From an uncultured Chloroflexia bacterium (GTDB taxonomy: Bacteria > Chloroflexota > Limnocylindria > Limnocylindrales > CSP1-4), in NCBI GenBank assembly GCA_963795645.1, contig CAWCIK010000006.1:1097523-1161522 (forward strand): DNA of 64,000 nt, read 5' to 3'. Positions 6,252-58,516 of the stretch are shown in pieces; the first letter of the stretch is position 1; each line of letters begins with the position of its first letter. The position numbers and the translations under genes were made by a program. The notes under the pieces were generated by a model, which was not told the origin of the DNA, ran no database searches, and saw only the letters and a list, made by a program, of their open reading frames with translations.

Positions 6252-7787
6252 TCAGGACAGTTCCTCATAAGCAGGCAGGGTCAGGAACTCGAGGAAGTCG
6301 TCGGACAGGGCGACTCTCTCGAAGAGGGCCGCAGCCTGCGCGTCGTGAGAGCGCCATGGCTCGATGGCGGCCAGGACCTCCTCGCGCGAGAACCTGCCGG
6401 TCCTGACCCACTGCCACACCTGCGAGCGTGAGATCTCGGCGGTGGCCGCGTCCTCCATAAGGTTGTCGAGCGCAGCGGCCCCGACGCCGTCCAGCCACGA
6501 TGCGATGTAGCGAATGCCGACCGATACGTTGGTCGTCAAACCCGCATCAGTAATCACGCCGCCCGGCACTTCGAAGTTCGTCAAATCGGCCGCGGCAACG
6601 TGCACGTCTTCACGCTGCCTGTATTTCTGGTTGGGCTTGTCACCGAGCGCGCGGTCGAAGACATCAGCGACGACCGGCACGAGGTCCGGATGGGCGACCC
6701 ACGTGCCGTCGAAGCCGTCGCCTGCCTCGCGCTCCTTGTCTTCGCGCACCTTGGCCAGCGCGTTCTCGTTGACCTCCGGCTCGCGTCGGTTGGGGATGAA
6801 CGCGCTCATGCCGCCCATCGCGTGGGCTCCGCGCCGGTGGCAGGTCTTCACGAGCAGCTGCGTATACGCACGCATGAACGGCACCCCCATCGTCACCTGG
6901 GCTCGATCGGGCAGGACCGCGCGCGACGGATCGGACGAGAACGCCTTGATGATCGAGAAGATGTAGTCCCAGCGACCGGCGTTGAGGCCGGCGGCGTGAT
7001 CGCGCAGCTCGTACAGGATCTCGTCCATCTCGAACGCGGCCCAGATCGTCTCGATCAGCACCGTCGCTCGGATTGAGCCGTGCGCGATACCGGCCTCTTC
7101 CTGCGCCCAGACGAATACGTCGTTCCACAGTCGCGCCTCTCGATGCGATTGCAGCTTGGGCAGGTAGAAGTAGGGCCCCGATTCACGGCGCAGCAGCTCG
7201 GTGCCGTTGTGAAACAGGTACAGCCCGAAGTCGAACAGCGACGCGGAAACCGGCGCGCCATCGACCTCGACATGTCGCTCGACGAGATGCCATCCGCGCG
7301 GTCTGACCAATAGCGTCGCGACCTGCTCGTTGAGCCGGTACGTCTTGCCCTCGGGCGATCGGAACTCAAGGACGCGTCGCACAGCGTCCTCGAGCGCCGC
7401 TTGGCCGCCTATGACATTCGTCCAAGTCGGCGACAGTGCGTCCTCGAAGTCGGCCATGAACACCTTCGCGCCACTGTTGAGTGCGTTGATGGTCATCTTG
7501 GCCTCGGCCGGTCCGGTGATCTCGACGCGGCGGTCGTTCAGGTCGGCGGGAGTGGCGGCAACGTGCCAGTCGGCATCGCGAACGTGGGATGTCTCAGCCA
7601 GGAAACCGAGCTGCTCGCCGCCTGCGAGCCGCGCGGCGCGATCGCGCCGCGCGGCGAGGATCTCCTGACGCCGCGGCTCGAACTCGCGCGCCAGCCGCGC
7701 AACGAAGTCGAGTGCATCCGACGTGAGCACGCGCTCCATGCCCGGCACGACCGGGCCACCCACATCCGCCCGCGAGGAGGAGCTCAC
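6252..7787 (-). CDS. aceB: Malate synthase A
   Basis: 'RRVEITGP', '[26 protein letters not shown]' and '[12 protein letters not shown]' malate synthase A signatures. A GTG at 7787 overlaps the upstream stop (GTGA); the ATG at 7739 is the alternative. Confidence 0.9.
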
Positions 7788-8380
7788 TTCTGACTCATCC
7801 TGGGCATGTTCGCCATGTCTATCGGGTTGCCCGAGCCGTGCACGGCGATCAACGCGTCCAGCCGCCGGATCCTCGTCTCCTCGCGTTTTGCGGTCATGAC
7901 CCACCACTTCGCCTGCCGGCGATAACCAGGTGGCTGCCGATTCCACGAAGCCCATGCCTCCGGACTGGCCTGGAAGCGCGCCTCAAGGTCCGCTGACAGG
8001 TCGAGTTCGGGGTTCTCAGCGGAGTAGACGCCAGTTCGATCGGCGCGTCGGGCCTCGTAAGCGGCAAGCCCAGAGGGCTGCACGCGGCCCGCTGCGATGA
8101 GCTCATCCATGCGCTTGACGTTGACGTTGCTCCAGACGCTTCCCTTGCGCCGCGGCGTGAACCGGATCGCGTGCGACCTGTCATCTATGCCACCAAGCTG
8201 GCCGTCGATCCAGCCGAAGCAGAGCGCCTCCTCGACGGCATCTGGATAGCTCAGCGCTGAGATCCCAGCCGCCTTCTTGTAGAAGCCGACCCATTGGAAG
8301 CTCTTCGAAGCATGGTTCTCGGCAAGCCAAGAGTGGAACTTTTCGCGCGAGTCGAAGATGAGGACGTCCTCTGGTTTCAC
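7784..8380 (-). CDS. YdeI/OmpD-associated family protein
   Basis: 'F.S..EFH.WL..NH', '[16 protein letters not shown]' and '[11 protein letters not shown]' motifs. GTG at 8380. Confidence 0.7.
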
Positions 8381-9108: not shown

Positions 9109-9968
9109 TCACCAGCCACCTGCCTCCCTCAGCATGCGATGGAGAACTCGCGCCGTGACGACTCGACGATAGTCGGCCGTTGAACGGACGTCGTCTATAG
9201 GGTGGACCTCTCCGGCAATTATCGCGGTCGCATGGTCGGCGGTCGACTCGCGCGGCGCGGCGCCCTCGAGCACACGCTCGGTGTCGAAGACCCAAATCGG
9301 CGTTGGCGCGACCGACCCGACGGCCAGCCGGACATCGCGCCACACGCCGCCATCCTCGCGCCACGCGAGCGCCATGACGACCTTCGATATCGCCTGAGCC
9401 CTGCGCGTCCCGACCTTTCGGAAGCGCACCTGTCGCCCCGCCGGCAGTGGAATGCGAATTGCCGTCACCAGCTCGTCGGGGCTGCGCGCCGTGACGCGAT
9501 ACGAAGGCCAGAACTCGGCCGCGGGAACGGCGCGCTCACGGCCGGCGCTGCGCAGCACGATCTCAGCGTCCGTCGCCAGCAGCACCGGCAGGGTGTCGCC
9601 GGCCGGAGATGCGTTGACGACATTGCCGCCGATCGTGCCCCGGTTCTGGATCTGTGCCGCACCGATGGTCGCCGCGCACTCGGCGAGCGCCGGCAAATGT
9701 GTCGCGATCAATTCGGAGGCGCGTATCTCGCTATACGTCGCGAGCGCGCCAACGCGAAGGTGGCCGTCACCGAGCGAGATGCCGCGCAGCTCGTCGAGAT
9801 GCCAGATATCCAGGACCCGCTCCGGGAGCGGTCCAAGCTCGCCTGTGATCTGCACCATCAGGTCCGTGCCGCCGGCCATCGGCCGCAGGCCGTTGCCAGC
9901 GGCCAGCAGGCCCAGGGCCTCCTCGAGCGACCGTGGCGAGAGAACCGGTGGCTCCGCAGGAGCGGGCA

Positions 9969-9969
<1 letters not shown>
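9109..9969 (-). CDS. Xanthine dehydrogenase family, FAD-binding subunit (CoxM/XdhB-like)
   Basis: 'AGGTDL', 'IQNRGTIGGN..NASPAGD' and 'D.RSTADYRR' motifs. The ATG at 9969 overlaps the 2Fe-2S subunit stop (ATGA). The track ORF to 10653 is an extension. Confidence 0.9.
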
Positions 9970-10453
<484 letters not shown>

Positions 10454-10454
<1 letters not shown>

Positions 10455-12817
10455 CAGGAGTCGCTCTTGGAGCTTCGCCCGGAGACCGTCGAGATGCCCG
10501 GCGGTGGCGGCGCCTTGATGTCGTACAGCACGGCCAGGATGCGCTCTGGGGACGCGGGCAGGTCGTGCACCCATGCCCCGGTCGCATCGTGGATGGCGGC
10601 CACGACCGCCGCCGCCGGCACATCCATTGGCAGCTCGCCGACCCCCTTCGCACCGTGTGGCGCGCCCGAGAACGGTTCCTCGACCAGGATCGAGGTGATC
10701 CGTGGCGCGTCGAGCGAGGTCGGGATCAGGTACGTTGCCAGCCTGTCGTTGAGGTAGCGGCCGTCGGCAAGCTTGATCTCCTCGATCGTCGCGTAGCCGA
10801 CGCCCTGCAGCGTGCCGCCTTCGACCTGGCCCTCTGCAAGCAGCGGATGAATCGCATGGCCGATGTCGTCGGCGGCGATCACGTCGCGCACGTCCACCTC
10901 GCCCGTGTCGAGATCGACCTCTACCTCGGCCGCGGCCGCGGCCCAGCCATAGGCCGGGTAGGCATCCCCGCGGTAGGTGGCGTCGTCAAAGGTGATGCCC
11001 GGATAGGGTTCGAAGCGTTGGTCGACGCGCAACCCGCCGTGCTCGCGAGCGTACTCGAGATACGACTCTGCAAACGTCTTGCCTGTTGATTTGACGACCG
11101 TGGAGCGAAGCTGTGCCGCGGCCTGGATCACGAGTCCACCAACGACCATCGCCGTTCTCGACGCGACAGTCGGGCCGCTGTCGGGCACGATAGAGGTGTC
11201 CTGCGGCGCCATCTCGATGATCTCGACCGGGACTCCCAGCTGCTCGGCGGCGAGCTGGGGGAAGATCGTCTTGGTGCCCTGGCCCATCTCGGTCGAACCG
11301 GTCAGGATGCGGATCTCGCCGCTGCTGGTCAGCTCGACGCTGGCGACGCTCGCCAGATGGACCTCACCGCTGCCGGTGAACCCGGCTCCGTGCCACGCCA
11401 GCGCGAGACCGATGCCCCTGGCCCGGCGCTCGCGTGTCGAGGTGAGCACGGCCGATCTTTCGCCGCCGCCCTTGCGCGATCGCTGCATTGCCGTCAAGGC
11501 TCGGACGCGTTCGAACTCGGAAGCTTCGGCGGCCCGCTCGAGGACCTCCTCGCCGGCCACGCTCTCCTTGAGCACCTGTCCGCTCGGCGTTTCGTCGCCG
11601 ATGCGATAGACCCACCTTCGGCGCAGCTCCAGCGGCGAGGACCCCAGGGCTTCCGCGATGCGGTTGACCTGCATCTCGGCCGCGAACTCCGTCTGCGGCG
11701 CGCCGAAGCCGCGGAACGCCCCATTTGGCGGGGTGTTGGTGGCCACGGCGCGTCCGCGAATGCGCACGTTGGGGCAGTTGTACGGGCCGCCGGCGTGAAG
11801 GATGCCGCGCGACAGCACGACCGGTGTCAGGGTGCAATAGGCGCCGCCGTCGAATACAACATCGATGTCCTGGGCCACCAGCCGTCCGTCGCGGGTAACG
11901 CCCGTGCGGTGGCGCACGATCGCCGGATGACGCTTGGTCGTCGCAGCGATGTCCTCGTGGCGGTCATAGATCATGCGCACCGGACGACGCAGCCGCTGGG
12001 CGAGCAGCGCGGCGTGCAGGGCGATCATCGACGGGTACTCCTCCTTGCCGCCGAAGCCGCCGCCCGTCTCAGCCTGGATGACGACGGCCTGTTGATCGGT
12101 CAGGCGGAGCGCACGTTTCATGGCCTTGTGGATGTAGTACGGGCATTGCAGGGAGCCGTGAACGGTTATGCCACCGTCCGGCCGCGGCACCGCGATCATC
12201 GCCTGGTTCTCGATGTATAGCTGCTCCTGGTGGCCGACTCGGTACTCGCCTTCGACGACCAGGTCAGCCTCGCCAAAGCCAGCGTCGACGTCGCCCTTGT
12301 CGAGCGCGAAGTGTGAAAACACCTGTGTCGACTCGAGTGGGTCAAAAACGGCTGCCAGTGGCTCCGTCCGCAACGTCACGTGCTGCCTCGCCTCGCGCAA
12401 CGTCTCGCGATCAGGTGCAGCCAGCAGCGCGACGGGCTCGGCATGGTGGCGGATCTCATCCTCGGCAAGCACCGGCTGGTCGTCGGCAATGAGCGATACG
12501 AGGTTGTCGCCCGGAATATCGCTGGCAGTGAGCAAGATCACCTTCGACCAGTCGAAATCAGGGCTCAGCTCGACACCCAGCAAGCGAGCGTGCGGCTCGG
12601 CTGAGCGGATCGTGTGCCCGTACCAGGCGCCGGGAAAGACGAGATCATCGGTGTAAAGGGCCGTGCCGGTCAGCTTGGCCGGGCCTTCCCGGCGCGTGGG
12701 GAAGGCGCGCGCCCGCCCGACGCCAACTTCGCCGGCCGCAGGCGCGCGCAGCGGCGTCGCAGCGTCGGGCACGGCGGTGGATGGCTTCGACCGCGGCGGG
12801 CGCGTCGTAACGGTCAT
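10454..12817 (-). CDS. Xanthine dehydrogenase family, molybdopterin-binding large subunit
   Basis: ~787 aa with 'GGGFGGK', 'AFRGFG.PQ' and 'GQG..T' aldehyde-oxidase/XDH motifs. Start taken at the ATG at 12817. Confidence 0.9.
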
Positions 12818-12921
12818 TGCAGTCGATGGTAACCCGCGATTTCGACACATTCGTGTTTCGCCGCAGTGCTAACTTCGAATGCGCTGTGACCGTTGCAGGG
12901 ACGGTCTCGAGGAGGGCACGT

Positions 12922-30239: not shown

Positions 30240-30362
30240 CGCGGTCAGGCTATCTCCATGCCGGATGTAATTTGGTCTTCGGGCGTAACGGCGGACTGAC
30301 GTCCGCGGCGCGGGCCACTATTCTTGGCCTACTTTCTCGACGATCTGTGCCCAGGGGTCCCA

Positions 30363-31520
30363 ATGAAGATAGGTGTGGTGAAAGAGCGCGCGCCGAATGA
30401 GCGGCGCGTGGCGCTCGTGCCTGACGCGCTCAAGGCGCTCATGGCAGCAGGTGCCGAAGTCCTGGTCGAACAGGGCGCCGGCGACGGCGCGGCGATCCCG
30501 GATCGCCTGTATGAAGATGCCGGCGCCCGCGTCGTGTCTCGCGACCAGCTTTATGCGGACGCCGATGTCGTCGCCCGCGTCCAGAAGCCCGAAGGGGCCG
30601 ATGTCGACTCGTTGCGTGCCGGCCAGGTAGTGGTCGGCATCCTGCAACCGCTGATCGATCCGCAGCTGATGAGCAGGCTGGCCGGCAAGAAGGTCACGGC
30701 CATCTCGCTCGACGCCATCCCGCGCACGCTGTCACGCGCGCAATCGATGGACGTACTCTCGTCGCAGGCCAACGTGGGCGGCTACCGCGCGGTGCTGATG
30801 GGCGCCCAGGAATACGGCCGCTACTTCCCGCTGCTGACGACGTCGGCAGGCACGGCCAAGCCGGCGAACGTGCTCATCCTGGGCATCGGCGTGGCAGGGC
30901 TGCAGGCCATCGCAACTGCGCGCCGGCTCGGCGCGCTGGTCAAGGCATATGACGTTCGCTCCGAGACCAAGGAGCAGGCAGAGTCGCTCGGCGCGCAGTT
31001 CCTGGTCCTGAAGTCCGTTGCCGACGCGTCCGGCAGTGGCGGTTACGCACGCCAGCTCACGCCAGAGGAGCAGGCGGCTCAGCAGGAGGAGCTGAACGGC
31101 TTCATCGCCGGCATGGACGTGGTCATCACCACTGCCCAGGTGCCCGGCCGCCGTCCGCCGCTGCTTGTCACTACCAAGGCCATCGAGGGCATGAAGCCCG
31201 GCTCGGTGATCGTCGACATGGCCGCGTCCGCGCTGGGCGGCAACGTCGAGCTGTCAAAGCCCGATGAGACCGTTGTGACGCCGAACGGCGTGACGATCCT
31301 GGCACCGACGAACTTGCCGGCGACCATGCCGGCCGGCGCGAGTCAGTTCTATGCGCGCAACATGTCGACCTTCCTGCTCCACTTCATGAAGGACGGAGCG
31401 ATGGCCTACGACCCCGCCGAGGAGATCCAGGCGGCCACGGTCATCACCCGCGACGGCGAAGTCGTGCAGGAGGCGACAAAGAAGCTCGTCTCGCCAGCCG
31501 CCCCGGAGGCAACAAAGTGA
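30363..31520 (+). CDS. pntAA: NAD(P) transhydrogenase subunit alpha part 1 (dI)
   Basis: 'KE....ERRVAL.P', 'SQAN.GGY.AV' and 'GVAGLQAIATA.RLGA' motifs. Confidence 0.92.
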   Translation: MKIGVVKERAPNERRVALVPDALKALMAAGAEVLVEQGAGDGAAIPDRLYEDAGARVVSRDQLYADADVVARVQKPEGADVDSLRAGQVVVGILQPLIDPQLMSRLAGKKVTAISLDAIPRTLSRAQSMDVLSSQANVGGYRAVLMGAQEYGRYFPLLTTSAGTAKPANVLILGIGVAGLQAIATARRLGALVKAYDVRSETKEQAESLGAQFLVLKSVADASGSGGYARQLTPEEQAAQQEELNGFIAGMDVVITTAQVPGRRPPLLVTTKAIEGMKPGSVIVDMAASALGGNVELSKPDETVVTPNGVTILAPTNLPATMPAGASQFYARNMSTFLLHFMKDGAMAYDPAEEIQAATVITRDGEVVQEATKKLVSPAAPEATK

Positions 31521-31852
31521 GCCCAGAGCTACTCAACGCGCTGGCGATCTTCTTGCTGGCGATCCTCGTCGGCTTCGAGGTCATCAGCAAGGTCCCCGCG
31601 ACACTGCATACGCCGCTGATGTCGGGCGCGAACTCGATCCATGGCATAGTCATCGTCGGCGCGATGCTCATCGCCGCAGCGGCCGACAACCCGTTCAGCT
31701 ATCTCCTCGCATTCATCGCGATGGTCTTCGGAGCGGCAAACGTCGTGGGCGGCTACGTCGTCACCGACCGCATGCTCCAGATGTTCCGCCGGCGCGAGCC
31801 GGCGAAGGCGCCAGCCGAGACGGCGAGCGCCCCTGCGGCCGAGGGGAAGTAG
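31517..31852 (+). CDS. pntAB: NAD(P) transhydrogenase subunit alpha part 2 (membrane)
   Basis: 'GFEVISKVP..LHTPLMSG.N.I.GI' motif. The GTG start overlaps the pntAA stop. Confidence 0.9.
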   Translation: MSPELLNALAIFLLAILVGFEVISKVPATLHTPLMSGANSIHGIVIVGAMLIAAAADNPFSYLLAFIAMVFGAANVVGGYVVTDRMLQMFRRREPAKAPAETASAPAAEGK

Positions 31853-31856
31853 CCCA

Positions 31857-33323
31857 ATGTCTGACCAGTGGATCTACACCCTCGTCTTCTTCTCCTGGCT
31901 GGCGGCGGCCTCGTCGTTCGTCCTCGGCCTGCACCAGATGAACAGCCCGGCCACGGCGCGCCGCGGGAACCAGCTCAGCGCGGCGGGCATGACGCTCGCA
32001 ATCGTTGTCACGTTCCTGTGGCTGCTCACGCCGGGCAACCCGATCAAGCCGGGCGGCATGGACATCACCGCCATCGCGATCATCTTCGTTGGCTTCGCGA
32101 TCGGCGGCGGCATCGGCCTGTGGCTGGCGCGTTCGGTGGCAATGACCGCGATGCCTCAGCTCGTGTCGCTCTTCAACGCTGTAGGTGGCGGCGCGGCCGC
32201 CCTGGTGGCGATCGATGACTACGTGCACATCGTCGGCTCACCGGAGCTGACAGTGTCCACGGCGGTCTTCGTCGTCCTCGGCGCGGTCATCGGCAGCGTC
32301 ACCTTCTCGGGATCCCTGATCGCCGGCGGCAAGCTCCAGGGTCTGGTGCCCGGCAAGCCCATCACCTTCCCCGGCTCGCGCATGGTCACGGCCCTCACCG
32401 CGGTGATCGCCGCCGTTGGGCTGGTGGTCCTCGTACTCGCTGCTGCGGGCACTCTGGCCATTAGCGCCGATACCCAGCTCGCTGTCCTCGGACTCGTCGT
32501 CCTCGCCGCGCTCACGTTCGGCATCACGCTGGTCCTGCCGATCGGTGGCGCGGACATGCCCGTCGTCATCTCGCTCCTGAACTCATTCACGGGCACGGCG
32601 GCGGCGATGGCCGGCTTCGTCATCGGCAACCCTGTGCTGATCATCGCCGGCGCGCTCGTGGGCGCTTCGGGCGGCATCCTGACCAAGCTCATGGCCGATG
32701 CGATGAACAGGTCGATCACCAACATCATGGTCGGCGGCTTCGGCACGGGCGATGCAGGCGCCGGCGCCGGACCCGGAGGTGCCGACGGTGGCTCGGTGCG
32801 CGAGGTCAGCCTCGACGATGCGGCCATTCAGCTTGCCTACGCCCAGAAAGTGATCATCGTGCCCGGCTACGGCCTGGCCGTGGCTCAGGCCCAGCACGCA
32901 GTGCGCGAGCTCGGCGACCTGCTCGAGCAGCGTGGCGTTGACGTCTCCTACGCCATCCATCCGGTCGCCGGACGGATGCCGGGCCACATGAACGTGCTGC
33001 TGGCCGAGGCCAACGTGCCTTATCCGCAGCTCAAGGAGATGGAGGAGATCAACCCGGAGTTCGAGCGCACCGACGTGGCGCTCGTGGTCGGCGCCAACGA
33101 CGTGACCAACCCCGCCGCCCGATCGAATCCGGCGAGCCCGATCTACGGGATGCCGATCCTGGATGTCGACCACGCCCGGTCGATCATCGTCATCAAGCGC
33201 TCGATGCGGCCCGGTTACGCGGGCATCGACAACGAGCTGTACGCCGACCCCAAGACGGGGATGCTCTTCGCCGACGCGCGCGAGGGTCTGACCCAGCTGG
33301 TCGCTGCCGTCAAGCAGCTCTAG
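31857..33323 (+). CDS. pntB: NAD(P) transhydrogenase subunit beta
   Basis: 'GGADMPVVISLLNS..G', 'YAIHPVAGRMPGHMNVLLAEA' and 'GANDV.NPAA'. Confidence 0.95.
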   Translation: MSDQWIYTLVFFSWLAAASSFVLGLHQMNSPATARRGNQLSAAGMTLAIVVTFLWLLTPGNPIKPGGMDITAIAIIFVGFAIGGGIGLWLARSVAMTAMPQLVSLFNAVGGGAAALVAIDDYVHIVGSPELTVSTAVFVVLGAVIGSVTFSGSLIAGGKLQGLVPGKPITFPGSRMVTALTAVIAAVGLVVLVLAAAGTLAISADTQLAVLGLVVLAALTFGITLVLPIGGADMPVVISLLNSFTGTAAAMAGFVIGNPVLIIAGALVGASGGILTKLMADAMNRSITNIMVGGFGTGDAGAGAGPGGADGGSVREVSLDDAAIQLAYAQKVIIVPGYGLAVAQAQHAVRELGDLLEQRGVDVSYAIHPVAGRMPGHMNVLLAEANVPYPQLKEMEEINPEFERTDVALVVGANDVTNPAARSNPASPIYGMPILDVDHARSIIVIKRSMRPGYAGIDNELYADPKTGMLFADAREGLTQLVAAVKQL

Positions 33324-49722: not shown

Positions 49723-50547
49723 ATGCCTCGCGGCGAAGGATACACAGTCGCCACGCTCGCGCAACCGCCAGGAGAGCCCCTTGAGACACGCTCAATGACC
49801 GACTTTGAGAAGGCCCAAAACGAGCCCGTCAGCGCCCACGAAGAGCGGCCCGAAAGGGTGCTTGTGATCGTCGCTCACCCGGATGACGCGGACTTTGGCG
49901 TGGCTGGAACGCTGGCCAAGTGGATTCGCGCGGGCACCGTCGCGCGGATGGTGTGCTGCACCAGCGGCGATGCCGGTGCCGACGACGCCCGTATCGACCC
50001 GCTCGAGCTGGCCACGACGCGTGAGGCCGAGCAGCGTGCGGCGGCCGCCGTCGTGGGTTACGAGACGGTCGATTTCCTGCACCGTCCAGACGGCGCGCTG
50101 GAGAACGATCTGGCACTGCGCGAGCAGCTCGTGCGCATCATCCGCGAGTTCAAGCCCGACGCCGTCGTGTGCATGGATCCGACCGTCGTCGTCCACGAAG
50201 ACGGGTACATCCAGCACGTCGATCACCGCACCGCCGCGATTGCCGCGATCGATGCGGTCTACCCGGCGTCGCGTAACGCGATGGCCTTTCCGCATCTCGT
50301 CCTGAACGAGGGCCTGGAGCCACACAGCGTCGACATCGTGTACCTCTTCTTCACCGACAAGTCGACCGTGTGGGTCGACACGTCGGACACGATCGACGTC
50401 AAGATCGCGGCGCTGCGCGAGCACACCAGCCAGCTGCGCGAGCCCGAACAGCTCGAGGAGATGCTGCGCCGCTGGGCGGCGGAGGGCGGTCAGAAGATCG
50501 GGACAGCGGCAGCCGAGTCGTTCCGCCTGATCAAGATGGGCCGCTAG
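49723..50547 (+). CDS. PIG-L/LmbE family deacetylase
   Basis: 'VIVAHPDDADFG' and 'HVDHR' zinc-ligand motifs. The ATG at 49795 is an alternative start. Confidence 0.85.
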   Translation: MPRGEGYTVATLAQPPGEPLETRSMTDFEKAQNEPVSAHEERPERVLVIVAHPDDADFGVAGTLAKWIRAGTVARMVCCTSGDAGADDARIDPLELATTREAEQRAAAAVVGYETVDFLHRPDGALENDLALREQLVRIIREFKPDAVVCMDPTVVVHEDGYIQHVDHRTAAIAAIDAVYPASRNAMAFPHLVLNEGLEPHSVDIVYLFFTDKSTVWVDTSDTIDVKIAALREHTSQLREPEQLEEMLRRWAAEGGQKIGTAAAESFRLIKMGR

Positions 50548-51676
50548 GCGCCGTCAGCAGCAGCGGGCGCAGGCGCCCCCACATATCCCACACCTCGGCG
50601 AGACGACTCGAACGGTTTCCCAGGCAGGCTATTACCCGGTCCAGGTCGAGATCCGGCGCGCTCGTCGCGAGGTACTCCTCGACGAGGACTGTCGTTCCCT
50701 GCCACAAGGCGTCGATCCCCAGCTGATCCGAGGGCCGATGCAGCGCGCGTGGGTCAAGACCCATGTGCGACAGACTGATGACAAGCTCGCGGATTGTCGG
50801 CGAGCGGCTGTCCATCCATCCGGAGCGCCCGTCGAAGCGGTAGCCCATGGACGCGAGGCTCGCGGCGACCCGCCCTGCGTCGTCGGCCGCGAATTGGCCC
50901 CAGAACGGGTGCCCGTCGGGGAAGCGAAACGCCATCTGCTCGAGGGCTCGGGCCGCGACCTGCTCGCGCAGCTCGAGCAGCAGTAGCTGCAGCCTGCCGG
51001 CTTCCACGCCCGTCTCTTCGGCCAGGCGCAGGGCCAGCGCGAGCAAAGTCTGTCGGTCGCCGCGCAGGAGGAGCGATATCGGAAGTACGACGGGTTGCCC
51101 GTTCGATGGCGGCGCGCCGGGGACGGGCGATGTGGTGGGCGGGACCCGGCCCTGAATCTGGCGCTGGGCCTCTTCCTCGCATGCGGCAAGGTCGCGCCGC
51201 GCGTTCATGCACGTTGCGTGTGCCGCCTCGGCCGCGATGCGCGCGGCGTCGGCGGCCAGCTCCATGCCCGGCAGCGCGTTCTCGAGCTCCGCGGCGCGGC
51301 GCGCAACATGCTCGGCCCTGCGATCGGCCATCATTACCTGCCTGTTGAGCCTATCCATGTCACGCAGCCAGACTCGCGCCGCCTCGTGGATGTTGCCGCG
51401 GTCGGTGGCTTTGATTACCGCCTGTCGATACGTCGAACGTGCTTCGTCCTTCGCCGCGCTGAGCAGCCGGCGGTCGCGTACGCGGGCATCGGCATCGCGC
51501 AGCGCACCGACCTCCATCAGCTCCTGTCTCACGTCGCGCAGCCTGCGCTCATGCGCCACCCTCGCCTGCGCGAGCCGTTCGGCCTCGGAGCAGGTCGCAT
51601 CGACGTCGGTCCGCGCTCCAGCGCACGGTCCCGACGGTGGCGCTACCGTCTGCGATGTGGCGATCGACATTTGCAC
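50531..51676 (-). CDS. Hypothetical coiled-coil protein
   Basis: The N-terminal ~170 aa are Arg/Ala/Glu-rich heptad-like sequence. A Pro-rich linker follows, then a ~190-aa globular C-terminus. I recognise no family. Confidence 0.55.
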   Translation of the reverse strand: MQMSIATSQTVAPPSGPCAGARTDVDATCSEAERLAQARVAHERRLRDVRQELMEVGALRDADARVRDRRLLSAAKDEARSTYRQAVIKATDRGNIHEAARVWLRDMDRLNRQVMMADRRAEHVARRAAELENALPGMELAADAARIAAEAAHATCMNARRDLAACEEEAQRQIQGRVPPTTSPVPGAPPSNGQPVVLPISLLLRGDRQTLLALALRLAEETGVEAGRLQLLLLELREQVAARALEQMAFRFPDGHPFWGQFAADDAGRVAASLASMGYRFDGRSGWMDSRSPTIRELVISLSHMGLDPRALHRPSDQLGIDALWQGTTVLVEEYLATSAPDLDLDRVIACLGNRSSRLAEVWDMWGRLRPLLLTAPSGPS

Positions 51677-51774: not shown

Positions 51775-53685
51775 ATGCTACGATCGTCTCGGTGGCGTCC
51801 GAGCACAGCCTGCCCCACGAGGTCTGACCTTTTGGCCATCGATCCCAACCAGGAATTTCTGGTTCAGCCTGTCGACGCCTCCTGGCTCCAGTGCAATATC
51901 GAGTGTCAGGAAGCGTGTCCCGTCGGCACCAACTGCCGCGGCTATCTGAACCTGGCCGCTGAAGGCCGCTTCGAGGAGGGTTACATCCTCGCGCGCGAGC
52001 CGAACCCGGTGGCGGCGATGTGCGCCTATGTCTGCTCCGCGCCGTGCGAACGAGCCTGCCGACGCGGTGATATCGACCGGCCCTTGTCGATCCGGGCCAT
52101 GAAGCGCTTCCTGACCGAGTGGCACCAGGCATCGGGCATTCCCGACGACATGCCCCAGATCACGCCGCGCGACACCAAGGTTGCGGTCGTTGGGGCCGGA
52201 CCTGCCGGAATCTCCGTCGCGCGCGAGCTGGCCGTGGCCGGCCACCAGGTGACCGTCTTCGACGAGCTGCCCTATGGCGGCGGCACGATGCTCATTGGCG
52301 TCCCTGCCTTCCGCCTCCCGCGCGAAGCAATCGACATGGACCTCAAGCTCGTCGAGCGCCTGGGCGTCCGCTTCCGGTTCGGTGTGCGCATCGGCCGCGA
52401 CATCACTTTTGAAGAGCTCATGGAGCAGTACGACTCGGTCGCGATCTGTGCCGGGGCCATGAACGCTGTTCCGCTAGACGTCCCCGGCGGTGACCTGGAA
52501 GGCATCCAGTACGGCGTCGACTACATGAAGAAGGCCAACCTGGGCGAGCCGCTCGAGGTCGGCAACAACGTCGTCATCGTCGGCGGTGGCTACACCGCGA
52601 TGGACTGCTCGCGAACGTCGTTGCGCTACGGCGCTGAGAACGTGACCATCGCCTATCGCCGTACCCGCTCCGAGCTCGTCGTCGACGAGGAAGAGCTGGG
52701 CGAGACCGAGCGCGAAGGCGTGAGCATGGAGTTCCTGGTCAGCCCGGTCGAGGTTCTTGGCGACGACAAGGGACGCGTGCGCGCGGTCAGGTTCATCCGC
52801 AATCGACTCGGTGAGCCTGATGCGACCGGCCGCCGCGCACCGGTGCCGATAGACGGCAGCGAGTTCGAGATCGCGGCCGACACGGTCATCCCCGCCGTCA
52901 GCCAGGCCGCGGACAACACGTTCCTGCCGGTCGAGTCGAGCTTCGAGGTCAATCGAGGCCGTGTCCGAGTGGATCCGGGCACGTACGCGACCAACGTCCG
53001 CGGTGTCTTCGCGTGCGGCGACTTCGTAACCGGGCCGACGACGCTCATCGAAGCGGCCGGGCACGGCAAGAAGTGCGCCTACGCGATCGACCGCTACCTG
53101 TCCGGGCGACGCGAGGTCGACGTCGATGCCAACGTGCGCATCGTCAGCTCGACGCGTCACGAGATGCCCGACTTCTACGACGTCCTGCCGCGCGTCCACG
53201 TCCCCATGGCAGCCGTCGCCGCGCGCTTCCCATCGACCGAGCCGAAGGTCAACTTCACCACACCGGTCGAGATGGGTTACAGCGCGCAGCAGGCGATCAC
53301 CGAAGGCACGCGCTGCCTCATGTGCAACTACAACATCTGGTTCGACCCGTTCCGCTGCGTGCTGTGCGGCGCTTGCGCGGATGTCTGCCCAGAAGGCGTC
53401 ATCCACATGATCGACATCAACCAGATGAAATCGGAGGGCCCGCTGCCCGAGCTGGTCGACGCCTACGGCTGGTCCGACGGGGCCGCGATGGTGCTCGACG
53501 AGGAGCGTTGCATCCGCTGCGCGTTGTGTGTCAAACGGTGCCCGTACGACGCTATTACCATGGACCGGTTCGAGCTCCAGGAGATCAGCAGCGACGGCCG
53601 GCTCTACAAGGAGAGCTACCGGGATACCCAGTTGGGGCTTGCTGGTGTCGGTAACCAAGCCGATGCGGGAGGTTGGATTCGTTGA
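51775..53685 (+). CDS. GltD/NfnB-like NAD(P)H-dependent flavo-iron-sulfur oxidoreductase with C-terminal 2x[4Fe-4S] ferredoxin domain
   Basis: N-terminal Cys clusters ('[15 protein letters not shown]', '[13 protein letters not shown]'). Two dinucleotide folds ('[10 protein letters not shown]', '[13 protein letters not shown]'). 'ACGD' motif. C-terminal '[12 protein letters not shown]' and '[12 protein letters not shown]'. A TTG at 51832 is an alternative start. Confidence 0.85.
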
Positions 53686-54410
53686 GCTTTCTTGAGCGTG
53701 TAGACGTGGCCGTGAGACGCAGCGCCGTCTTCCGGTCGCTCTTCCGCCAGCCGTATCCGACGGACGAGCGGTCGCGTGCCTACGCGGTCATGAACAACGT
53801 GTTCCTGCACCTCCACCCGGTGCGCGTCAGGCAGCACGCTGTCAAGTTCGCGTACACCTTCTGCCTCGGTGGCCTGTCGTTCTTCTTCTTCCTCGTGCTG
53901 ACCGTGACCGGCGTCTTCCTGATGTTCTTCTACGTGCCGTCCTCGACGTCCGCGTACGACGACATCCTGCGCATCCAGGCGGAAGTGCCGTTCGGGCTGC
54001 TGACGAGGAACATCCATCGCTGGGCCGCGCACCTGATGGTCTTCTTCGTCTTCCTGCACATGATGCGGGTCTTCTACCACGGGGCCTACAAGCCGCCGCG
54101 CGAGTTCAACTGGGTTGTCGGCGTGCTGCTGCTGTTCTTCACCGTGGCCCTGTCGTTCACGGGCTACCTGCTGCCCTGGGATCAGATCGCGTTCTGGGCG
54201 GTCACGATCGGCAACAACATCGCCTCGTACGTGCCTCTCCTGTCGAAGCCCTCACAGCTGCTCATCTTCGGCGGCATCGAAGTCAGCCAGAACACGCTCT
54301 TACGCTTCTATGTCCTGCACGTGATCCTCTTACCGCTCACTGCGGCTATCTTCCTCGCCGTTCACTTCTGGAGGATCCGGAAGGACGGCGGCATCAGTGG
54401 ACCGCTCTAG
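53673..54410 (+). CDS. Cytochrome b6-type (N-terminal four-helix half of cytochrome b)
   Basis: '[22 protein letters not shown]' and '[34 protein letters not shown]' haem-ligand helices (14-residue His spacing in helix D), plus 'FCLGG'. Overlaps the upstream gene by 13 nt. Confidence 0.92.
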
Positions 54411-55055
54411 ATGACACAAGACAAGTCCCGACTTCCGGCTCCCACTGCACCAGCGGAGCCCGCCGCTCCCAAGCGCACCGCGCTGCCCGCCGCCCCGCCC
54501 GAGCGACGGACGACGGAGATCGACAAGCAGCGCGTGCCCATGGCTGCCAAGCCATATCGGCTGCTGGCGCTCGTCAAGCAGGATGCTGTTGTCCGCGTCC
54601 AGAAGGAGCCTGACGACACGGTCATGACCTGGCCGCACCTGCTCTCGATCGAGTTCTTCGCGGCGGCAATGATGAGCATCTTCCTGCTCCTGATGGGCGT
54701 GTTCATCAACGCGCCGCTGGAAGAGCTGGCCAATCCGAACACGACGCCCGTTGTGGCCAAGGCGCCGTGGTACCTCGTTGGCATCCAGGAGCTCCTCGCC
54801 TACTTCCACCCCGTGGTGGCGGGCGTGCTGTCCATCGCGTACATAATCGTCGGCCTGATAGTCATCCCGTATATCGACCGCGGACCGCAGGGCGATGGCG
54901 GGTCGCCGCGACCGAGCAACCGCAAGCTGGGCATCATCCTGTTCACGATGTTTGCCGCATCCGGCCTGGTGATCACGTTCATGGGCGCCTTCTTCCGCGG
55001 TCCCGGGTACAACTACATCCTGCCGTGGCAGGACGGACTCTTCTTCGCTCTTTAA
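54411..55055 (+). CDS. Cytochrome b subunit IV-type (C-terminal half of cytochrome b)
   Basis: Three TM helices and a Qo-loop 'KAPWYLVGIQELL' that corresponds to the PEWY region. The ATG directly follows the upstream TAG. Confidence 0.85.
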   Translation: MTQDKSRLPAPTAPAEPAAPKRTALPAAPPERRTTEIDKQRVPMAAKPYRLLALVKQDAVVRVQKEPDDTVMTWPHLLSIEFFAAAMMSIFLLLMGVFINAPLEELANPNTTPVVAKAPWYLVGIQELLAYFHPVVAGVLSIAYIIVGLIVIPYIDRGPQGDGGSPRPSNRKLGIILFTMFAASGLVITFMGAFFRGPGYNYILPWQDGLFFAL

Positions 55056-55070: not shown

Positions 55071-55739
55071 ATGGGCAATTGGAAATTGGCCCGCTGGCAA
55101 GAACCACAGACACTCACTCGTGACGTGCTGCGCGAGATGCGCAAGGGCCGGCCGGCCGGGATGTCCCGACGGACGCTCATCCGCCGCTCGATCGGCGCTG
55201 GTGTGGCTCTATGGCTTCTGGAAGTGACCGGCGGCATGCTCGGATTCCTGTGGCCGAACCTGTCGAAGGGTTTCGGTGGCCAGATCGAGCTCGGCGACGA
55301 GGCGACCGTCGCGGGCAACCCGGCGGTTCAGGGCGTGACCCTGTCCGACGGCGCACCGGCGTACTACTCCCAGGCGCGCACCTACGTCCAGCTGATCGAC
55401 TACGAGCGAGGCTTCAGCGACGGCGTCAGCGTCGACGGCAGCGGTGCCGACACCAATGTGCGCACGATCTACCAGCGCTGCCCGCACCTGGGCTGCAAGC
55501 CCAACTTCTGTACCAGCAACTACTGGTTCGAGTGCCCCTGTCACGGCTCGCGCTATGACCGCCTGGGCACCAAGATCAAGGAGCTCGGACCCGCGCCGCG
55601 GAGCATGGATCGCTTCGCGCACAAGGTGGCCTCAGGAGTGCTGACCGTCGACACGTCCAAGATCACTCTCGGCCCGCTGCCCGTCGCCCTGGGACAGCCC
55701 GGCCTGATTCCGGCCCGCTCCCCGCAAGGCTGCATATGA
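55071..55739 (+). CDS. Rieske [2Fe-2S] protein
   Basis: Twin-arginine N-terminus 'SRRTLIRRSIGAG' and the cluster boxes 'CPHLGC' and 'CPCHGS'. Confidence 0.92.
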   Translation: MGNWKLARWQEPQTLTRDVLREMRKGRPAGMSRRTLIRRSIGAGVALWLLEVTGGMLGFLWPNLSKGFGGQIELGDEATVAGNPAVQGVTLSDGAPAYYSQARTYVQLIDYERGFSDGVSVDGSGADTNVRTIYQRCPHLGCKPNFCTSNYWFECPCHGSRYDRLGTKIKELGPAPRSMDRFAHKVASGVLTVDTSKITLGPLPVALGQPGLIPARSPQGCI

Positions 55740-57028
55740 CGGACGAGCGCACCGGCCGCGAGCTGACGCCCCGCTCCGAGGAGCCGGATTCCGCGGTAAC
55801 GCCGCGCGAACCGGCTGTTCCGGCGCCCGGCTCGCAGGCGGTCGAGCGCTTCTCTGGCGGCACCCGAGCCCACACCGTCGGGCTTACGGAAGAGCGCGCC
55901 ACGAAGATCGTCAAGCAGAGCGGCAACGCGCGCATGATCGCGTTCCTGGGCGCGCTCTTCCTCGTCCTGTTCATTCCCATCTACTGGCTGTACGACATCG
56001 GGCTGCCGGTCGTCGGCGTCGAGGGGCGCCTGGCCAACGAGGCTCAGCAACAGCAGGTGACGGACATCTCGCGCGGCTATGCGCTCTTCCTGGCCAACTG
56101 CGCGCGCTGCCACGGCGCCAACGGCGAGGGTCTTGTCGGCCCGGCACTCAACGATCAGGCCAAGCTGTACAACACGATCACCGCGGCCGGCGCCGCGGGA
56201 CCCGGTCATCTCAACCCCAACTATCTGCAGACGGTCCTCCAGGTTGGCGGCCGCTACGTATGCGGCGATCCGAACAGCGTTATGCCCATCTGGGAGCAAC
56301 CGAACGGGCCGCTCAACTATCGCCAGATCCAGGAGATAATCGACTGGATCACGGCCAGCAGCGACATCTCGTTCACCTACCAGCCGGCCGTCGCCGAGGG
56401 CAATGCCGGCGCCACGGCACCACCGGCGGTCACGATCCATGGCTGGCGTGACCCGACCTACACGCCGGCGCCCGGCGCCACACCTGTGCCGGCCTGCTGG
56501 CGCGGCGACAACACCGGCTCCGGGTCGGCTCAGGCAACGCTCGCGCCGGTCACGAGTCCGGGTACGGCCGAACATCCGCGCGAGATCGACGTCGAGGGCA
56601 CCGACCAGCTCAAGTGGGTCGACCCGGCTACCGGCCAGCAGATCACCCAGCTCGCGGTCGTGGCCGGCGAGGTGATCGAATTCAAGGTCGACGTAAACAG
56701 CTCCACAGCGCACAACTTCCACCTCGGGCCGGCCGGCAATCTGGCCACGGCACCCGAGCACAACGATCTGCCCGGCCTGGACACGTTCGCCAACTCGACC
56801 GAGACCTTCCTGTACACGGTGCCGCCGGCCCTGACATCCGATGCGCAGTTTGCGTGCACGGTGCCCGGCCACTACCAGTCGGGCATGCACGTCGACCTGA
56901 TCGCGCAGGACTCGTCTACCGAGCCTGGATCGCCGGCGCCTTCGGCAGCTCCGGATGCATCGGCTGCCCCGGCGGAGTCGGCCGCGTCGTCCGCGGCACC
57001 ATCACCGTCAGCGGCGCCTTCGCAGTAG
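55736..57028 (+). CDS. Membrane-anchored monohaem cytochrome c fused to a type-1 copper (auracyanin/plastocyanin-like) cupredoxin domain
   Basis: TM helix 'MIAFLGALFLVLFIPIYWLY'. One 'CARCH' haem site with a distal 'VMPIW' Met. C-terminal 'AHNFH' and 'CTVPGHYQSGM' copper ligands. ATGA overlap with the Rieske gene. Confidence 0.85.
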   Translation: MTDERTGRELTPRSEEPDSAVTPREPAVPAPGSQAVERFSGGTRAHTVGLTEERATKIVKQSGNARMIAFLGALFLVLFIPIYWLYDIGLPVVGVEGRLANEAQQQQVTDISRGYALFLANCARCHGANGEGLVGPALNDQAKLYNTITAAGAAGPGHLNPNYLQTVLQVGGRYVCGDPNSVMPIWEQPNGPLNYRQIQEIIDWITASSDISFTYQPAVAEGNAGATAPPAVTIHGWRDPTYTPAPGATPVPACWRGDNTGSGSAQATLAPVTSPGTAEHPREIDVEGTDQLKWVDPATGQQITQLAVVAGEVIEFKVDVNSSTAHNFHLGPAGNLATAPEHNDLPGLDTFANSTETFLYTVPPALTSDAQFACTVPGHYQSGMHVDLIAQDSSTEPGSPAPSAAPDASAAPAESAASSAAPSPSAAPSQ

Positions 57029-58516
57029 ATGGCTGAGTACGCACTTCCGCCCGGAGCCGTCCGCCGCCGCGCAGTCTTCGGGCTGCTCGACGCCGATGGT
57101 TGGACATGGGCGACGATCAAGGCCACGTTCTGGTTCGTGTTCATCATCTTCGTGCTCGGCTACGTGCCGGACCGCGCCTACTACTTCACCGTTCTGCCGA
57201 CGCTCGACCTGGGCTTCAACGCCATCTCGCCGGTCAACATGTGCTCGGCCGACAACAAGACGCTGCCGTGTCCCGCCCCGGCTGGCGCCGTCATCCCGTG
57301 GGAGTCCAGCCCCACAGAGCTCGACCTTCCCCAGGGCCGCACGGGGGCAGGTTCGTTCATTTCGGGCACGAACGTCTACCTGATCGGCGGCTCGACCGGA
57401 GGCGCAGCCACAGCCAGCGTCCTGGCCACGACCTCCGACAACGGCACGATCAATCCATGGCAGGACGGCCCTGCGCTCCCTGACCCCAGGTCGGGCGCTG
57501 TGACTCTCACGCTGGCGGGCACGCCCTATGTGATCGGAGGCAGCGACGCGTCCGGCAACCCGACCTCGACCGTGTTCGTGGGCACGGTGGACCAGGGCGC
57601 GCTGACCGGCTGGGCGGACGCAGGCATCACGCTGCCGATCCCCCTCACCGACGCCACCGGCGTCGCGACTGCGACCGGCGTCTATGTCTTCGGCGGCCAG
57701 ACCACGGGCGACACGCTCTCCGCCGCTACGTACAACGCCGTGATCCCCGAAGGACAGACCAAGCTCGGCGCGTTCACGGACATGACTGAGATCCCGCTGC
57801 CGGAGGCACGCGCCGGAGCGGCCGCGGTCTCGGCCGGCATCTCGGTCTTCGTCATGGGCGGCCAGGGCCCCGACGGCGTGTCCAACTCCGTCTTCTATCT
57901 GAAGCTCGACTCGCACGGCAATCCGGCGGTCAACACCGACTCGGGCAGGCCGTTCGGCTGGGGCGTGTCGGTCAACGAGTCCGCGTCGGCGGCGCTGCCA
58001 GAACCACGTCAGCATCAGACGAGCTTCGGCAACGGCGGCGCGCTCTACGTCATTGGCGGCCAGGACGCGAACGGGGTGGCCGTGAGCACCAACTACTGGA
58101 CCGTCCCGAACCCCTCCAACGGCCTGATCAGTGGCTGGCAGAGTCTCGACGTCACCGACCTGCCCGATCCACAAGCCGGATCCGCATCGGCCATCAGTGG
58201 CACGACCGTCTTCCTCATCGGTGGCACTGGCGCCGACGGCACGGATCTGACGTCCGTGCTGCGCGCGGATCTCGCCCCGCGACTGCCGTTCTTCCGGCTG
58301 GGCCTTTTCGGCGTGACCGTTCCCGCACTCTCGATCCAGGGCGAGATCGGCCAGCAGCTGGGCTACATCGTGGCCGGCAGTGCCGGCGCCGGCGGGCTCA
58401 TCTTCCTGATCCTGATCGGCTGGGCCTTCTCACACCGCCGCCAGACGTTCCACTTCTTCCAGTGGATGAGCCGCGGCCGCTTCCGGGCACCTCCAGACGA
58501 CGAGTACGGCGTCTAA
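57029..58516 (+). CDS. Kelch-repeat (six-bladed beta-propeller) protein with N- and C-terminal TM helices
   Basis: Six 'hyd-hyd-GG' blade signatures (VYLIGGS, PYVIGGS, VYVFGGQ, VFVMGGQ, LYVIGGQ, VFLIGGT). TM segments near both ends. The ATG directly follows the upstream TAG. Confidence 0.8.
   Translation: MAEYALPPGAVRRRAVFGLLDADGWTWATIKATFWFVFIIFVLGYVPDRAYYFTVLPTLDLGFNAISPVNMCSADNKTLPCPAPAGAVIPWESSPTELDLPQGRTGAGSFISGTNVYLIGGSTGGAATASVLATTSDNGTINPWQDGPALPDPRSGAVTLTLAGTPYVIGGSDASGNPTSTVFVGTVDQGALTGWADAGITLPIPLTDATGVATATGVYVFGGQTTGDTLSAATYNAVIPEGQTKLGAFTDMTEIPLPEARAGAAAVSAGISVFVMGGQGPDGVSNSVFYLKLDSHGNPAVNTDSGRPFGWGVSVNESASAALPEPRQHQTSFGNGGALYVIGGQDANGVAVSTNYWTVPNPSNGLISGWQSLDVTDLPDPQAGSASAISGTTVFLIGGTGADGTDLTSVLRADLAPRLPFFRLGLFGVTVPALSIQGEIGQQLGYIVAGSAGAGGLIFLILIGWAFSHRRQTFHFFQWMSRGRFRAPPDDEYGV

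Follow-up and report, generated by a model that had tools for sequence, protein, structure and literature searches.

Can a single polypeptide that joins a monohaem cytochrome c to a type-1 copper domain serve as the high-potential arm of a Rieske/cytochrome b complex? The question was raised by a 64,000-nucleotide stretch of DNA from an uncultured Chloroflexia bacterium of the Limnocylindria (assembly GCA_963795645.1, contig CAWCIK010000006.1, positions 1,097,523 to 1,161,522 of the forward strand; this whole stretch is called the window below), in which one gene encodes such a fusion. An earlier note, made from the letters alone, had read the product as a membrane-anchored cytochrome c with one CARCH haem site, a long Pro/Thr/Ala linker and an auracyanin-like copper domain. 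It had proposed that the protein replaces cytochrome c1 or f as a built-in acceptor, had called this arrangement unusual, and had suggested profile searches, structure prediction for residues ~290-430 and a survey of how widespread the fusion is. The analysis described here makes it likely that the fusion is the positive-side, high-potential redox subunit of the complex, with electrons passing from quinol through the Rieske protein, haem c and copper to a partner in the membrane.

The fusion gene and its homologues

The open reading frame (ORF) of the fusion is confirmed as a genuine gene.

55736..57028, plus strand: cytochrome c-cupredoxin fusion, 430 aa, membrane-anchored

The G+C content at third codon positions (GC3) was 0.85 in the plus-strand frame. 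The G+C content of the window is 67%, so long spurious ORFs are common in it, and an overlapping antisense ORF of 445 aa (55553-56890) showed the pattern of a shadow (0.82 at first codon positions, GC1); it was rejected as a real gene. Among 5.8 billion proteins searched, homologues fell into at least 1949 clusters at E <= 1e-3. The best 120 of these were 56-78% identical to the fusion and mostly full-length, and those bearing a name were assigned to Chloroflexota or Candidatus Limnocylindrales. Length and both domains were kept in more than 100 full-length homologues, and a gene-fusion artefact was rejected on these grounds. Because the N-terminus is kept among homologues from Met1 on, the start codon is right. 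Conservation was followed in two families: the auracyanin-like family, to which the window protein belongs, and a sister family with a different copper domain, described further below. The segments and predicted ligands of the protein, all on the plus strand, are as follows.

55736..55933, plus strand: cytoplasmic N-terminal segment, residues 1-66, with near-invariant columns ('ERF..G...H.VGLTEERA..IV.QS.NAR')
55934..56014, plus strand: single transmembrane anchor, residues 67-93, from hydropathy and a helix in the AlphaFold2 (AF2) model
56048..56365, plus strand: class-I monohaem cytochrome c domain, residues ~105-210, from Pfam and motifs
56099-56113, plus strand: haem site C122ARCH126, a single CxxCH
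56261-56263, plus strand: C176 of the cytochrome c domain, invariant in both families
56282-56287, plus strand: M183(-P184), presumed sixth haem ligand, a Met-Pro downstream of CxxCH
56366..56503, plus strand: conserved connector, residues 211-256 ('GWRDP.YTP.PGATPVPACW')
56495-56497, plus strand: C254, in 'PACW' of the connector, invariant in both families
56504..56575, plus strand: variable Gly/Ser/Thr/Ala/Pro linker, residues 257-280, with gapped, poorly conserved columns
56576..56905, plus strand: type-1 copper cupredoxin domain, residues 281-390, from AF2, Foldseek and ligand conservation
56711-56713, plus strand: H326 (followed by N327) in 'AHNFH', predicted first copper ligand
56855-56887, plus strand: ligand loop C374-T-V-P-G-H379-Y-Q-S-G-M384, predicted copper ligands C374, H379 and M384
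56906..57025, plus strand: low-complexity Ala/Pro/Ser tail, residues 391-430, of variable length

Membrane anchor and cytochrome c domain

The N-terminal transmembrane anchor of the earlier note was recovered as the sole transmembrane segment of the protein, extending over residues 67-85/93, with a hydropathy peak of 2.44 at residues 67-85; the AF2 model showed an unbroken helix over residues 52-88. Lys and Arg residues flank the segment on the side of residues 1-66, and covalent haem attachment needs a cytochrome c domain outside the membrane, where cytochrome c maturation takes place. The topology is N-in, with residues 1-66 cytoplasmic and the redox domains outside. In both families residues 1-66 were as conserved as the redox domains, an invariant His46 included. 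Such strong conservation would be unusual for a mere anchor; the segment may touch a partner at the negative side of the membrane, perhaps the flavoprotein encoded in the same operon.

For the cytochrome c domain, the profile search gave a Pfam Cytochrom_C match (PF00034) above the cut-off (29.5 versus 21.3) and a marginal one to Cytochrome_CBB3 (PF13442; 27.4 versus 27). The single CARCH site and the Met-Pro downstream of it stood as the note had described them (C122ARCH126 and M183-P184): CxxCH occurs once in each of the 120 best homologues and Met-Pro in all but one (119/120), and the sister family is alike in both respects. Met183 would be the sixth haem ligand. Weak alignments with SoxX (residues 120-206) and with the cytochrome c domain of a caa3 oxidase (1w2l; residues 121-206) span the domain, including this Met. 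Support for a putative three-helix cytochrome c fold comes from these sequence matches; the AF2 models contain no haem.

The cupredoxin domain

In the full-length AlphaFold model, residues 271-390 formed an all-beta domain of eight strands with predicted local distance difference test scores (pLDDT) of 81-94, overlapping the range of residues ~290-430 that had been named for structure prediction. The top 50 Foldseek matches of the model in the PDB were all cupredoxin domains, among them the auracyanins 6kol, 1qhq and 2aan, plastocyanins, and the type-1 domains of nitrite reductase (NiR) and laccases; for single-domain proteins, the template modelling score (TM-score) relative to the target was 0.55-0.66. 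Sequence searches pointed the same way. The best PDB match of the family profile in this region was auracyanin A (2aan, E 1.4e-5), and a single-sequence search with the domain of the window protein retrieved only auracyanin A (2aan, E 0.0016) and the Roseiflexus auracyanin (6kol). The word "auracyanin-like" was therefore well chosen, auracyanins being the sole PDB sequence relatives of the domain.

The predicted ligands occupy the positions that a type-1 site requires. In the profile alignment CTVPGHYxxM falls on CTVPGHYPLM of auracyanin A and the 'HN' of the first ligand on 'QHNW', while the loop of the Roseiflexus auracyanin, CTYPAHYAGGM, aligns with that of the fusion residue for residue. 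H326-N327 opens a strand (326-332), C374 ends the last strand but one (370-374), and H379 and M384 lie in the loop that leads to the final strand (385-390). The type-1 ligand set that had been read from 'AHNFH' and 'CTVPGHYQSGM' is borne out by conservation: H326, C374, H379 and M384 are invariant or nearly so, the Cys-His-Met loop is present in 119/120 of the best homologues (the lone exception being a truncated sequence), and the type-1 ligands with the His-Asn pair are kept in 119/120 and 120/120 members of the two families. The spacing C-x4-H-x3-M of auracyanin A was found in 109/120, and the longer C-x4-H-x4-M in 10/120, including the window protein. The modelled fold and the aligned ligands together support an auracyanin-like cupredoxin with a type-1 ligand set as the C-terminal domain; copper at this site, and haem at CARCH, would be the expected cofactors of the folded protein.

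Connector and linker

The region between the two domains proved to be of two kinds, and the description as one long Pro/Thr/Ala linker holds for its C-terminal part only. Residues ~257-280 are variable, whereas residues ~207-256 are strongly conserved and include predicted strands (short ones at connector residues 212-215 and 232-235). G236, W237, D239, P244, P252, C254 and W255 are invariant in both families, and 'P.CW' was found in 120/120 and 119/120 homologues of the two families. In the AF2 model, pLDDT fell below 50 over residues 244-268. C176 and C254 both lie outside the haem motif and the copper loop; a disulfide between them may fasten the connector to the cytochrome domain.

The six-gene operon

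The fusion gene is the fifth of six plus-strand genes whose stops and starts overlap or abut, in the order NfnB-like flavoprotein, cytochrome b6, subunit IV, Rieske protein, fusion and Kelch protein. The five genes around it are these.

51775..53685, plus strand: NfnB/GltD-like flavoprotein for nicotinamide adenine dinucleotide (phosphate), NAD(P), and flavin adenine dinucleotide (FAD); first operon gene, with N-terminal Fer4_20 and a C-terminal 2x[4Fe-4S] ferredoxin domain
53673..54410, plus strand: cytochrome b6 of the four-helix split type, with the haem c_n Cys in 'FCLGG'
54411..55055, plus strand: subunit IV-like protein (SUIV), with three transmembrane segments, a long Pro/Ala-rich cytoplasmic N-terminus and the Qo motif APWY
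55071..55739, plus strand: Rieske [2Fe-2S] protein (boxes CPHLGC and CPCHGSRY), its N-terminus twin-arginine-like
57029..58516, plus strand: Kelch beta-propeller protein (Pfam Kelch families), with N- and C-terminal transmembrane segments at 28-46 and 447-465

The Rieske stop overlaps the fusion start (ATGA) and the fusion stop abuts the Kelch start (TAGATG); the fusion gene is translationally coupled within the operon. No gene for cytochrome c1, cytochrome f or any other c-type cytochrome besides the fusion was found in the operon.

The b6-type Rieske/b gene set is complete, split b6 and SUIV, haem c_n Cys and Rieske boxes being encoded together. Cytochrome b6 matched Pfam Cytochrome_B (6e-48) and the NCBIfam model ExtP (296 bits versus a cut-off of 290), and in its alignment with chloroplast b6 (6rqf; 3e-50) FCLGG fell on YCLGG; FCLGG is present in 47 of 53 related loci. 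SUIV corresponds to the C-terminal part of cytochrome b (Pfam Cytochrom_B_C, 5.9e-7), and its Qo motif 'KAPWYLVG' replaces PEWY/PDWY, 'KAPWY' being found in 49 of the 53 loci. Like the fusion, SUIV and b6 bear long cytoplasmic N-terminal extensions. The Rieske protein (Pfam Rieske, 8.3e-8; NCBIfam matches to b6f iron-sulfur subunits) keeps its boxes in 45-48 of the 53 loci and carries the Ser/Tyr pair that is linked to a high potential.

The flavoprotein, in which no transmembrane segment was predicted, matched Pyr_redox_2 (1.7e-30), Fer4_20 (2.7e-17) and Fer4/Fer4_7 in Pfam and GltA/GltD-type models in NCBIfam; its best PDB relatives were NfnABC (9bov/9bp5, 1.2e-110), with NfnA (9n5u) also retrieved. 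It has four predicted [4Fe-4S] sites, and the end of its gene overlaps the b6 ORF. The Kelch protein has about six blades and, by prediction, an outward-facing propeller. Its conserved residues showed no metal or cofactor site, the invariant ones being mostly structural except for C72 and C81 near the first transmembrane segment.

The Rieske/b context that the earlier note gave to the fusion is well founded. That reading had overlooked how strongly the connector and N-terminus are conserved, and also the NAD(P) flavoprotein, the APWY motif and the Kelch protein, three features that set the complex apart from ordinary analogues of bc or b6f. The fusion would be a stoichiometric subunit of the complex encoded here.

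Distribution and variants

A scan for related loci, with one genome per species in GTDB, found the fusion at about 51 loci, all of them in metagenome-assembled genomes (MAGs) of Chloroflexota. All six operon genes stood in the same order wherever the contig was long enough (about 50 species-level genomes of Limnocylindria). The fusion was the least conserved subunit across loci, with 45-75% identity compared with 79-98% for b6. The proposed survey of its spread led to thousands of metagenomic sequences, whose sources are uncultured Chloroflexota (Limnocylindria) of soil and freshwater.

Variants were sought with a profile against 1.84 billion cluster representatives, followed by further searches. 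The sister family comprises at least 2468 clusters that share the N-terminus, cytochrome c domain and connector; its copper domain belongs to Cupredoxin_1 (PF13473) and has a short plastocyanin/amicyanin-like loop, C-x2-H-x2/3-M. It occurs in the same six-gene operon and wider neighbourhood (loci L072, L073 and L047; protein P0138). A further variant, P0122, carries two tandem auracyanin-like domains in the same operon. The neighbourhood shared by the sister-family and P0122 loci includes AhpC/Bcp, PIG-L, DUF2203 and aminotransferase genes, and wherever the flank is long enough the Kelch gene comes next after the fusion, be it in either family or in the variant with tandem cupredoxins. The 'Thermomicrobiales' label of the MAG carrying L047 was considered as evidence for the fusion in cultured Thermomicrobia and rejected, as L047 carries the sister-family form.

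In these comparisons the cytochrome c module is constant, and the copper module exchangeable and duplicable. The haem-copper subunit is not general to related complexes, since an Actinomycetes MAG (locus L054, 2660-5933) combines b6, SUIV and Rieske genes with a 423-aa trihaem cytochrome c that has a C-terminal transmembrane segment; neither a cupredoxin nor the flavoprotein was found at this locus.

Proposed electron path and alternatives

In the reading that we consider likely, the class-I cytochrome c (His126/Met183) would be held by the anchor at the membrane surface beside the Rieske head. The conserved half of the connector would pack on the cytochrome domain, and a short flexible stretch would lead to the copper domain (His326, Cys374, His379, Met384). 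Quinol would be oxidised at the APWY Qo site, and one electron would move from the Rieske [2Fe-2S] cluster to haem c and on to the type-1 copper; the tethered copper domain would then pass it to a membrane partner, most plausibly the CuA centre of a haem-copper oxidase. The second electron would run through haems bP, bN and c_n to quinone at the negative-side Qi site or, alternatively, from c_n into the NfnB-like subunit, where four [4Fe-4S] clusters and FAD would pass it on to NAD(P)+. The haem-copper pair would play the role taken elsewhere by the dihaem QcrC of actinobacterial bcc-aa3 or by the membrane copper proteins of archaeal supercomplexes.

A built-in haem-to-copper wire of this kind is plausible. 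The cytochrome c domain directly follows the anchor and the copper domain sits beyond the variable linker; with an exchangeable copper module on a constant cytochrome c, we read copper as the distal, partner-facing end. Chloroflexota are monoderm, and for this reason a tethered rather than a soluble carrier makes sense. The gene content fits the idea of a built-in acceptor in place of c1 or f, as the operon lacks both; we infer the haem-to-copper order, which way the electrons flow and what accepts them.

Several observations weigh against this reading. The window protein reached no Pfam cupredoxin cut-off (SoxE, 16.3 versus 21), and the suggested profile check for the copper domain failed, with no match to PF00127 (Copper-bind) or PF13473 (Cupredoxin_1); some close homologues do match PF00127, and the sister family matches PF13473. 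When the cytochrome c domain was modelled by itself from a mixed alignment, mean pLDDT was 59 and the best Foldseek match, cytochrome c6A, was not significant (E 0.57). No cultured carrier emerged, searches from the window protein, P0138 and L047 giving metagenomic or MAG sequences only. No terminal oxidase, Alternative Complex III (ACIII) or other carrier was found in the 64-kb window, which makes the acceptor a guess. Finally, the direction of flow could be the opposite one, since the APWY motif marks a clade that has been suggested to run in reverse (PMC4122944).

The favoured path could extend to electron bifurcation, which we regard as a tentative possibility. One Qo electron would go through haem c and the blue copper to an oxygen reductase, and the other through FAD to NAD(P)H; equally tentatively, the Kelch propeller would help to hold the wire and the cytoplasmic N-terminus of the fusion would help to dock the flavoprotein. 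If true, the bifurcation that has so far been proposed for anammox bacteria alone would exist in an oxygen-respiring lineage, with copper in the high-potential branch.

It is unlikely that the complex runs in reverse. An outer donor would then reduce copper, haem c and the Rieske protein in turn, an NAD(P)H electron would arrive through FAD, the four [4Fe-4S] clusters, c_n/bN and bP, and quinone would be reduced at Qo by confurcation. The APWY motif in 49 of 53 loci and the constant presence of an NAD(P)-linked flavoprotein agree with such a scheme, and the conserved outer-face Kelch protein could bind the donor or be it. But the Kelch protein has no conserved metal or cofactor site, and the window looks aerobic-heterotrophic (malate synthase, molybdenum hydroxylase, PntAB), with no obvious need for uphill flow. 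The idea of reversal also stems from a clade in which no complex has been characterised (PMC4122944), and the published analysis of the anammox relatives favours forward bifurcation (PMC12954380).

With forward flow, the internal order could be the opposite one, from the Rieske cluster to the type-1 copper, then to haem c and the acceptor, with the copper domain swinging back to the Rieske head. Archaeal supercomplexes, in which a membrane-bound copper protein links Rieske/b complex and oxidase, offer a precedent (PMC4122944); the weak Pfam match of the copper loop is to the sulfocyanin model SoxE, and the flexible linker would permit the swing. Strong conservation of the anchor-adjacent cytochrome c beside an exchangeable, duplicable copper domain is nevertheless easier to understand with copper at the distal end. 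To our knowledge, moreover, every characterised bacterial Rieske/b complex hands its electrons first to a haem c, and we consider the opposite order improbable.

That the cupredoxin is no electron-transfer centre, being instead a copper-handling or resistance domain of the CopI kind or a degenerate structural one, is very improbable, because the NCBIfam match to the CopI cuproprotein on which this would build (E 2.1e-5, residues 367-388, together with the lack of a passing Pfam cupredoxin model) covers the ligand loop only, at 24 bits versus a cut-off of 280, whereas the type-1 ligands and His-Asn pair are retained in both families, the domain is always fused to cytochrome c within a Rieske/b operon, and its closest solved relatives, auracyanin A and the Roseiflexus auracyanin, are electron carriers.

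Other genes in the window

Judged from the genes of the window, the host of the haem-copper protein looks like an aerobic heterotroph.

30324-33323, plus strand: PntA/PntB proton-translocating NAD(P) transhydrogenase, ~20 kb upstream of the operon
9109-12850, minus strand: FAD and large subunit genes of a molybdenum hydroxylase of the xanthine dehydrogenase/CO dehydrogenase family
6252-7955, minus strand: malate synthase, near the molybdenum hydroxylase genes
50531-51676, minus strand: divergent 381-aa ORF upstream of the operon, with no Pfam match

The PntAB genes are relevant wherever NAD(P)H is taken to be a product or a substrate of the Rieske/b complex. Several amidohydrolase genes lie near those for the molybdenum hydroxylase. 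A gene of similar size to the 381-aa ORF, likewise with no Pfam match, occupies the same position in L072, L073 and the P0122 contig.

Significance of the fusion

Rieske/b complexes vary most in their high-potential subunit: cytochrome c1, cytochrome f, dihaem, tetrahaem and multihaem cytochromes and archaeal copper proteins all occur in this place, and some complexes have none. A single chain with one haem c and one type-1 copper adds a combination not found in the searchable literature. In searchable full-text literature neither the fusion nor the six-gene operon in Limnocylindria/Ellin6529 turned up; automated annotation already labels the protein 'mono/diheme cytochrome c family protein / cupredoxin-like copper-binding protein' or '/plastocyanin'. 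"Unusual", the word used in the earlier note, is apt in relation to that literature but not to nature, where thousands of metagenomic sequences make the arrangement common. The fusion also ties the auracyanin lineage of the Chloroflexota to a Rieske/b complex instead of ACIII. The host complex may matter more than the fusion, which taken alone is a modest curiosity: it marks a simple and widespread relative of the anammox complexes. The positive side is far simpler than in anammox bacteria (two centres versus 6-14 haems) and the clade is very abundant in soil, so that this complex could be more tractable for testing bifurcating NAD(P)H production.

Comparison with known systems

Auracyanins are stand-alone, separately anchored type-1 copper carriers that serve ACIII. 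Auracyanins A and B of Chloroflexus and the Roseiflexus auracyanin share with the copper domain of the fusion the phylum, the cupredoxin fold and the ligand order C-T-V-P-G-H-Y-x-x-(x)-M. In loop spacing most family members resemble auracyanin A (C-x4-H-x3-M), while the window protein resembles auracyanin B and the Roseiflexus protein (C-x4-H-x4-M). The similarity is weak (~20-26% identity in Foldseek, E 1.4e-5 with the profile), and unlike the auracyanins this domain forms the C-terminal portion of a cytochrome c polypeptide, the gene of which lies in a Rieske/b6 operon. It is auracyanin-like, but if the name auracyanin is reserved for free carriers of ACIII it does not apply here; the domain probably works like an auracyanin and is a distant relative.

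Single chains that combine a cupredoxin with a class-I cytochrome c are known from subunit II of caa3 oxidases (CuA cupredoxin and cytochrome c) and from three-domain copper nitrite reductases. The cytochrome c domains of caa3 (1w2l) and NiR were among the weak PDB matches of the fusion, and the HdNiR cupredoxin was among its Foldseek matches. CuA is binuclear with two Cys ligands, and the fused domains of NiR feed a catalytic type-2 (T2) copper. The fusion differs from both in domain order and context, and it has two carriers only and no catalytic centre.

The sulfocyanin/halocyanin supercomplexes of archaea (SoxM type) likewise place a membrane-bound blue-copper protein in the high-potential branch of a Rieske/b complex (PMC4122944), and a weak SoxE match was found at the copper loop here. 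They contain no cytochrome c at all and have their copper protein on a chain of its own, in unrelated lineages.

QcrC of actinobacterial bcc-aa3 and the Firmicutes cytochromes c that are joined to subunit IV or cytochrome b share with the fusion an anchored, two-centre high-potential subunit that replaces c1 and a soluble carrier in a monoderm host. Weak local matches to QcrC were found near the haem motif (NCBIfam bc1_QcrC_actin, 26 bits; PDB 7q21_C and 6hwh_M). The fusion is, all the same, not QcrC, c1 or f: the bc1_QcrC_actin score lies far below the cut-off of 200, and no c1 or f profile matched. Its second centre is a type-1 copper instead of a haem, and whereas the oxidase supercomplex is known for QcrC, the fusion is known from genes.

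The whole operon compares best with those Rieske/b complexes of anammox bacteria that contain an NAD(P) reductase. For the Kuenenia complexes Kuste4569-4574 and Kustd1480-1485, bifurcation to NAD(P)+ has been proposed, and the flavoprotein Kuste4570 was modelled on 9bp5 (PMC12954380). Shared features are the split b6 and SUIV, the haem c_n Cys, the Rieske Ser/Tyr pair (as reported for Kuste4569), and an operon-encoded NfnB-like FAD/NAD(P) subunit with four Fe-S clusters, for which 9bov/9bp5 is the best relative here also. On the positive side the anammox complexes carry hexa- or octahaem cytochromes c and an HAO-like protein (an octahaem cytochrome of the hydroxylamine oxidoreductase type), whereas the Limnocylindria operon encodes one haem c, one (sometimes two) type-1 copper and a Kelch membrane protein. 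SUIV has three predicted transmembrane segments here and five in the anammox models, and the host is like an aerobic heterotroph rather than an anammox bacterium. The gene content, as judged from sequence, is of the anammox type except for the multihaem cytochrome, which the haem-copper protein appears to replace. The SUIV motif would place the complex in the APWY clade of cytochrome b, an uncharacterised clade for which reverse operation was proposed (Kao & Hunte 2014, PMC4122944). Because of the NfnB/GltD-like subunit and the APWY motif, we would place the complex beside the anammox NAD(P)-reductase complexes and in this clade; outside the anammox bacteria, it would appear to be their closest relative.

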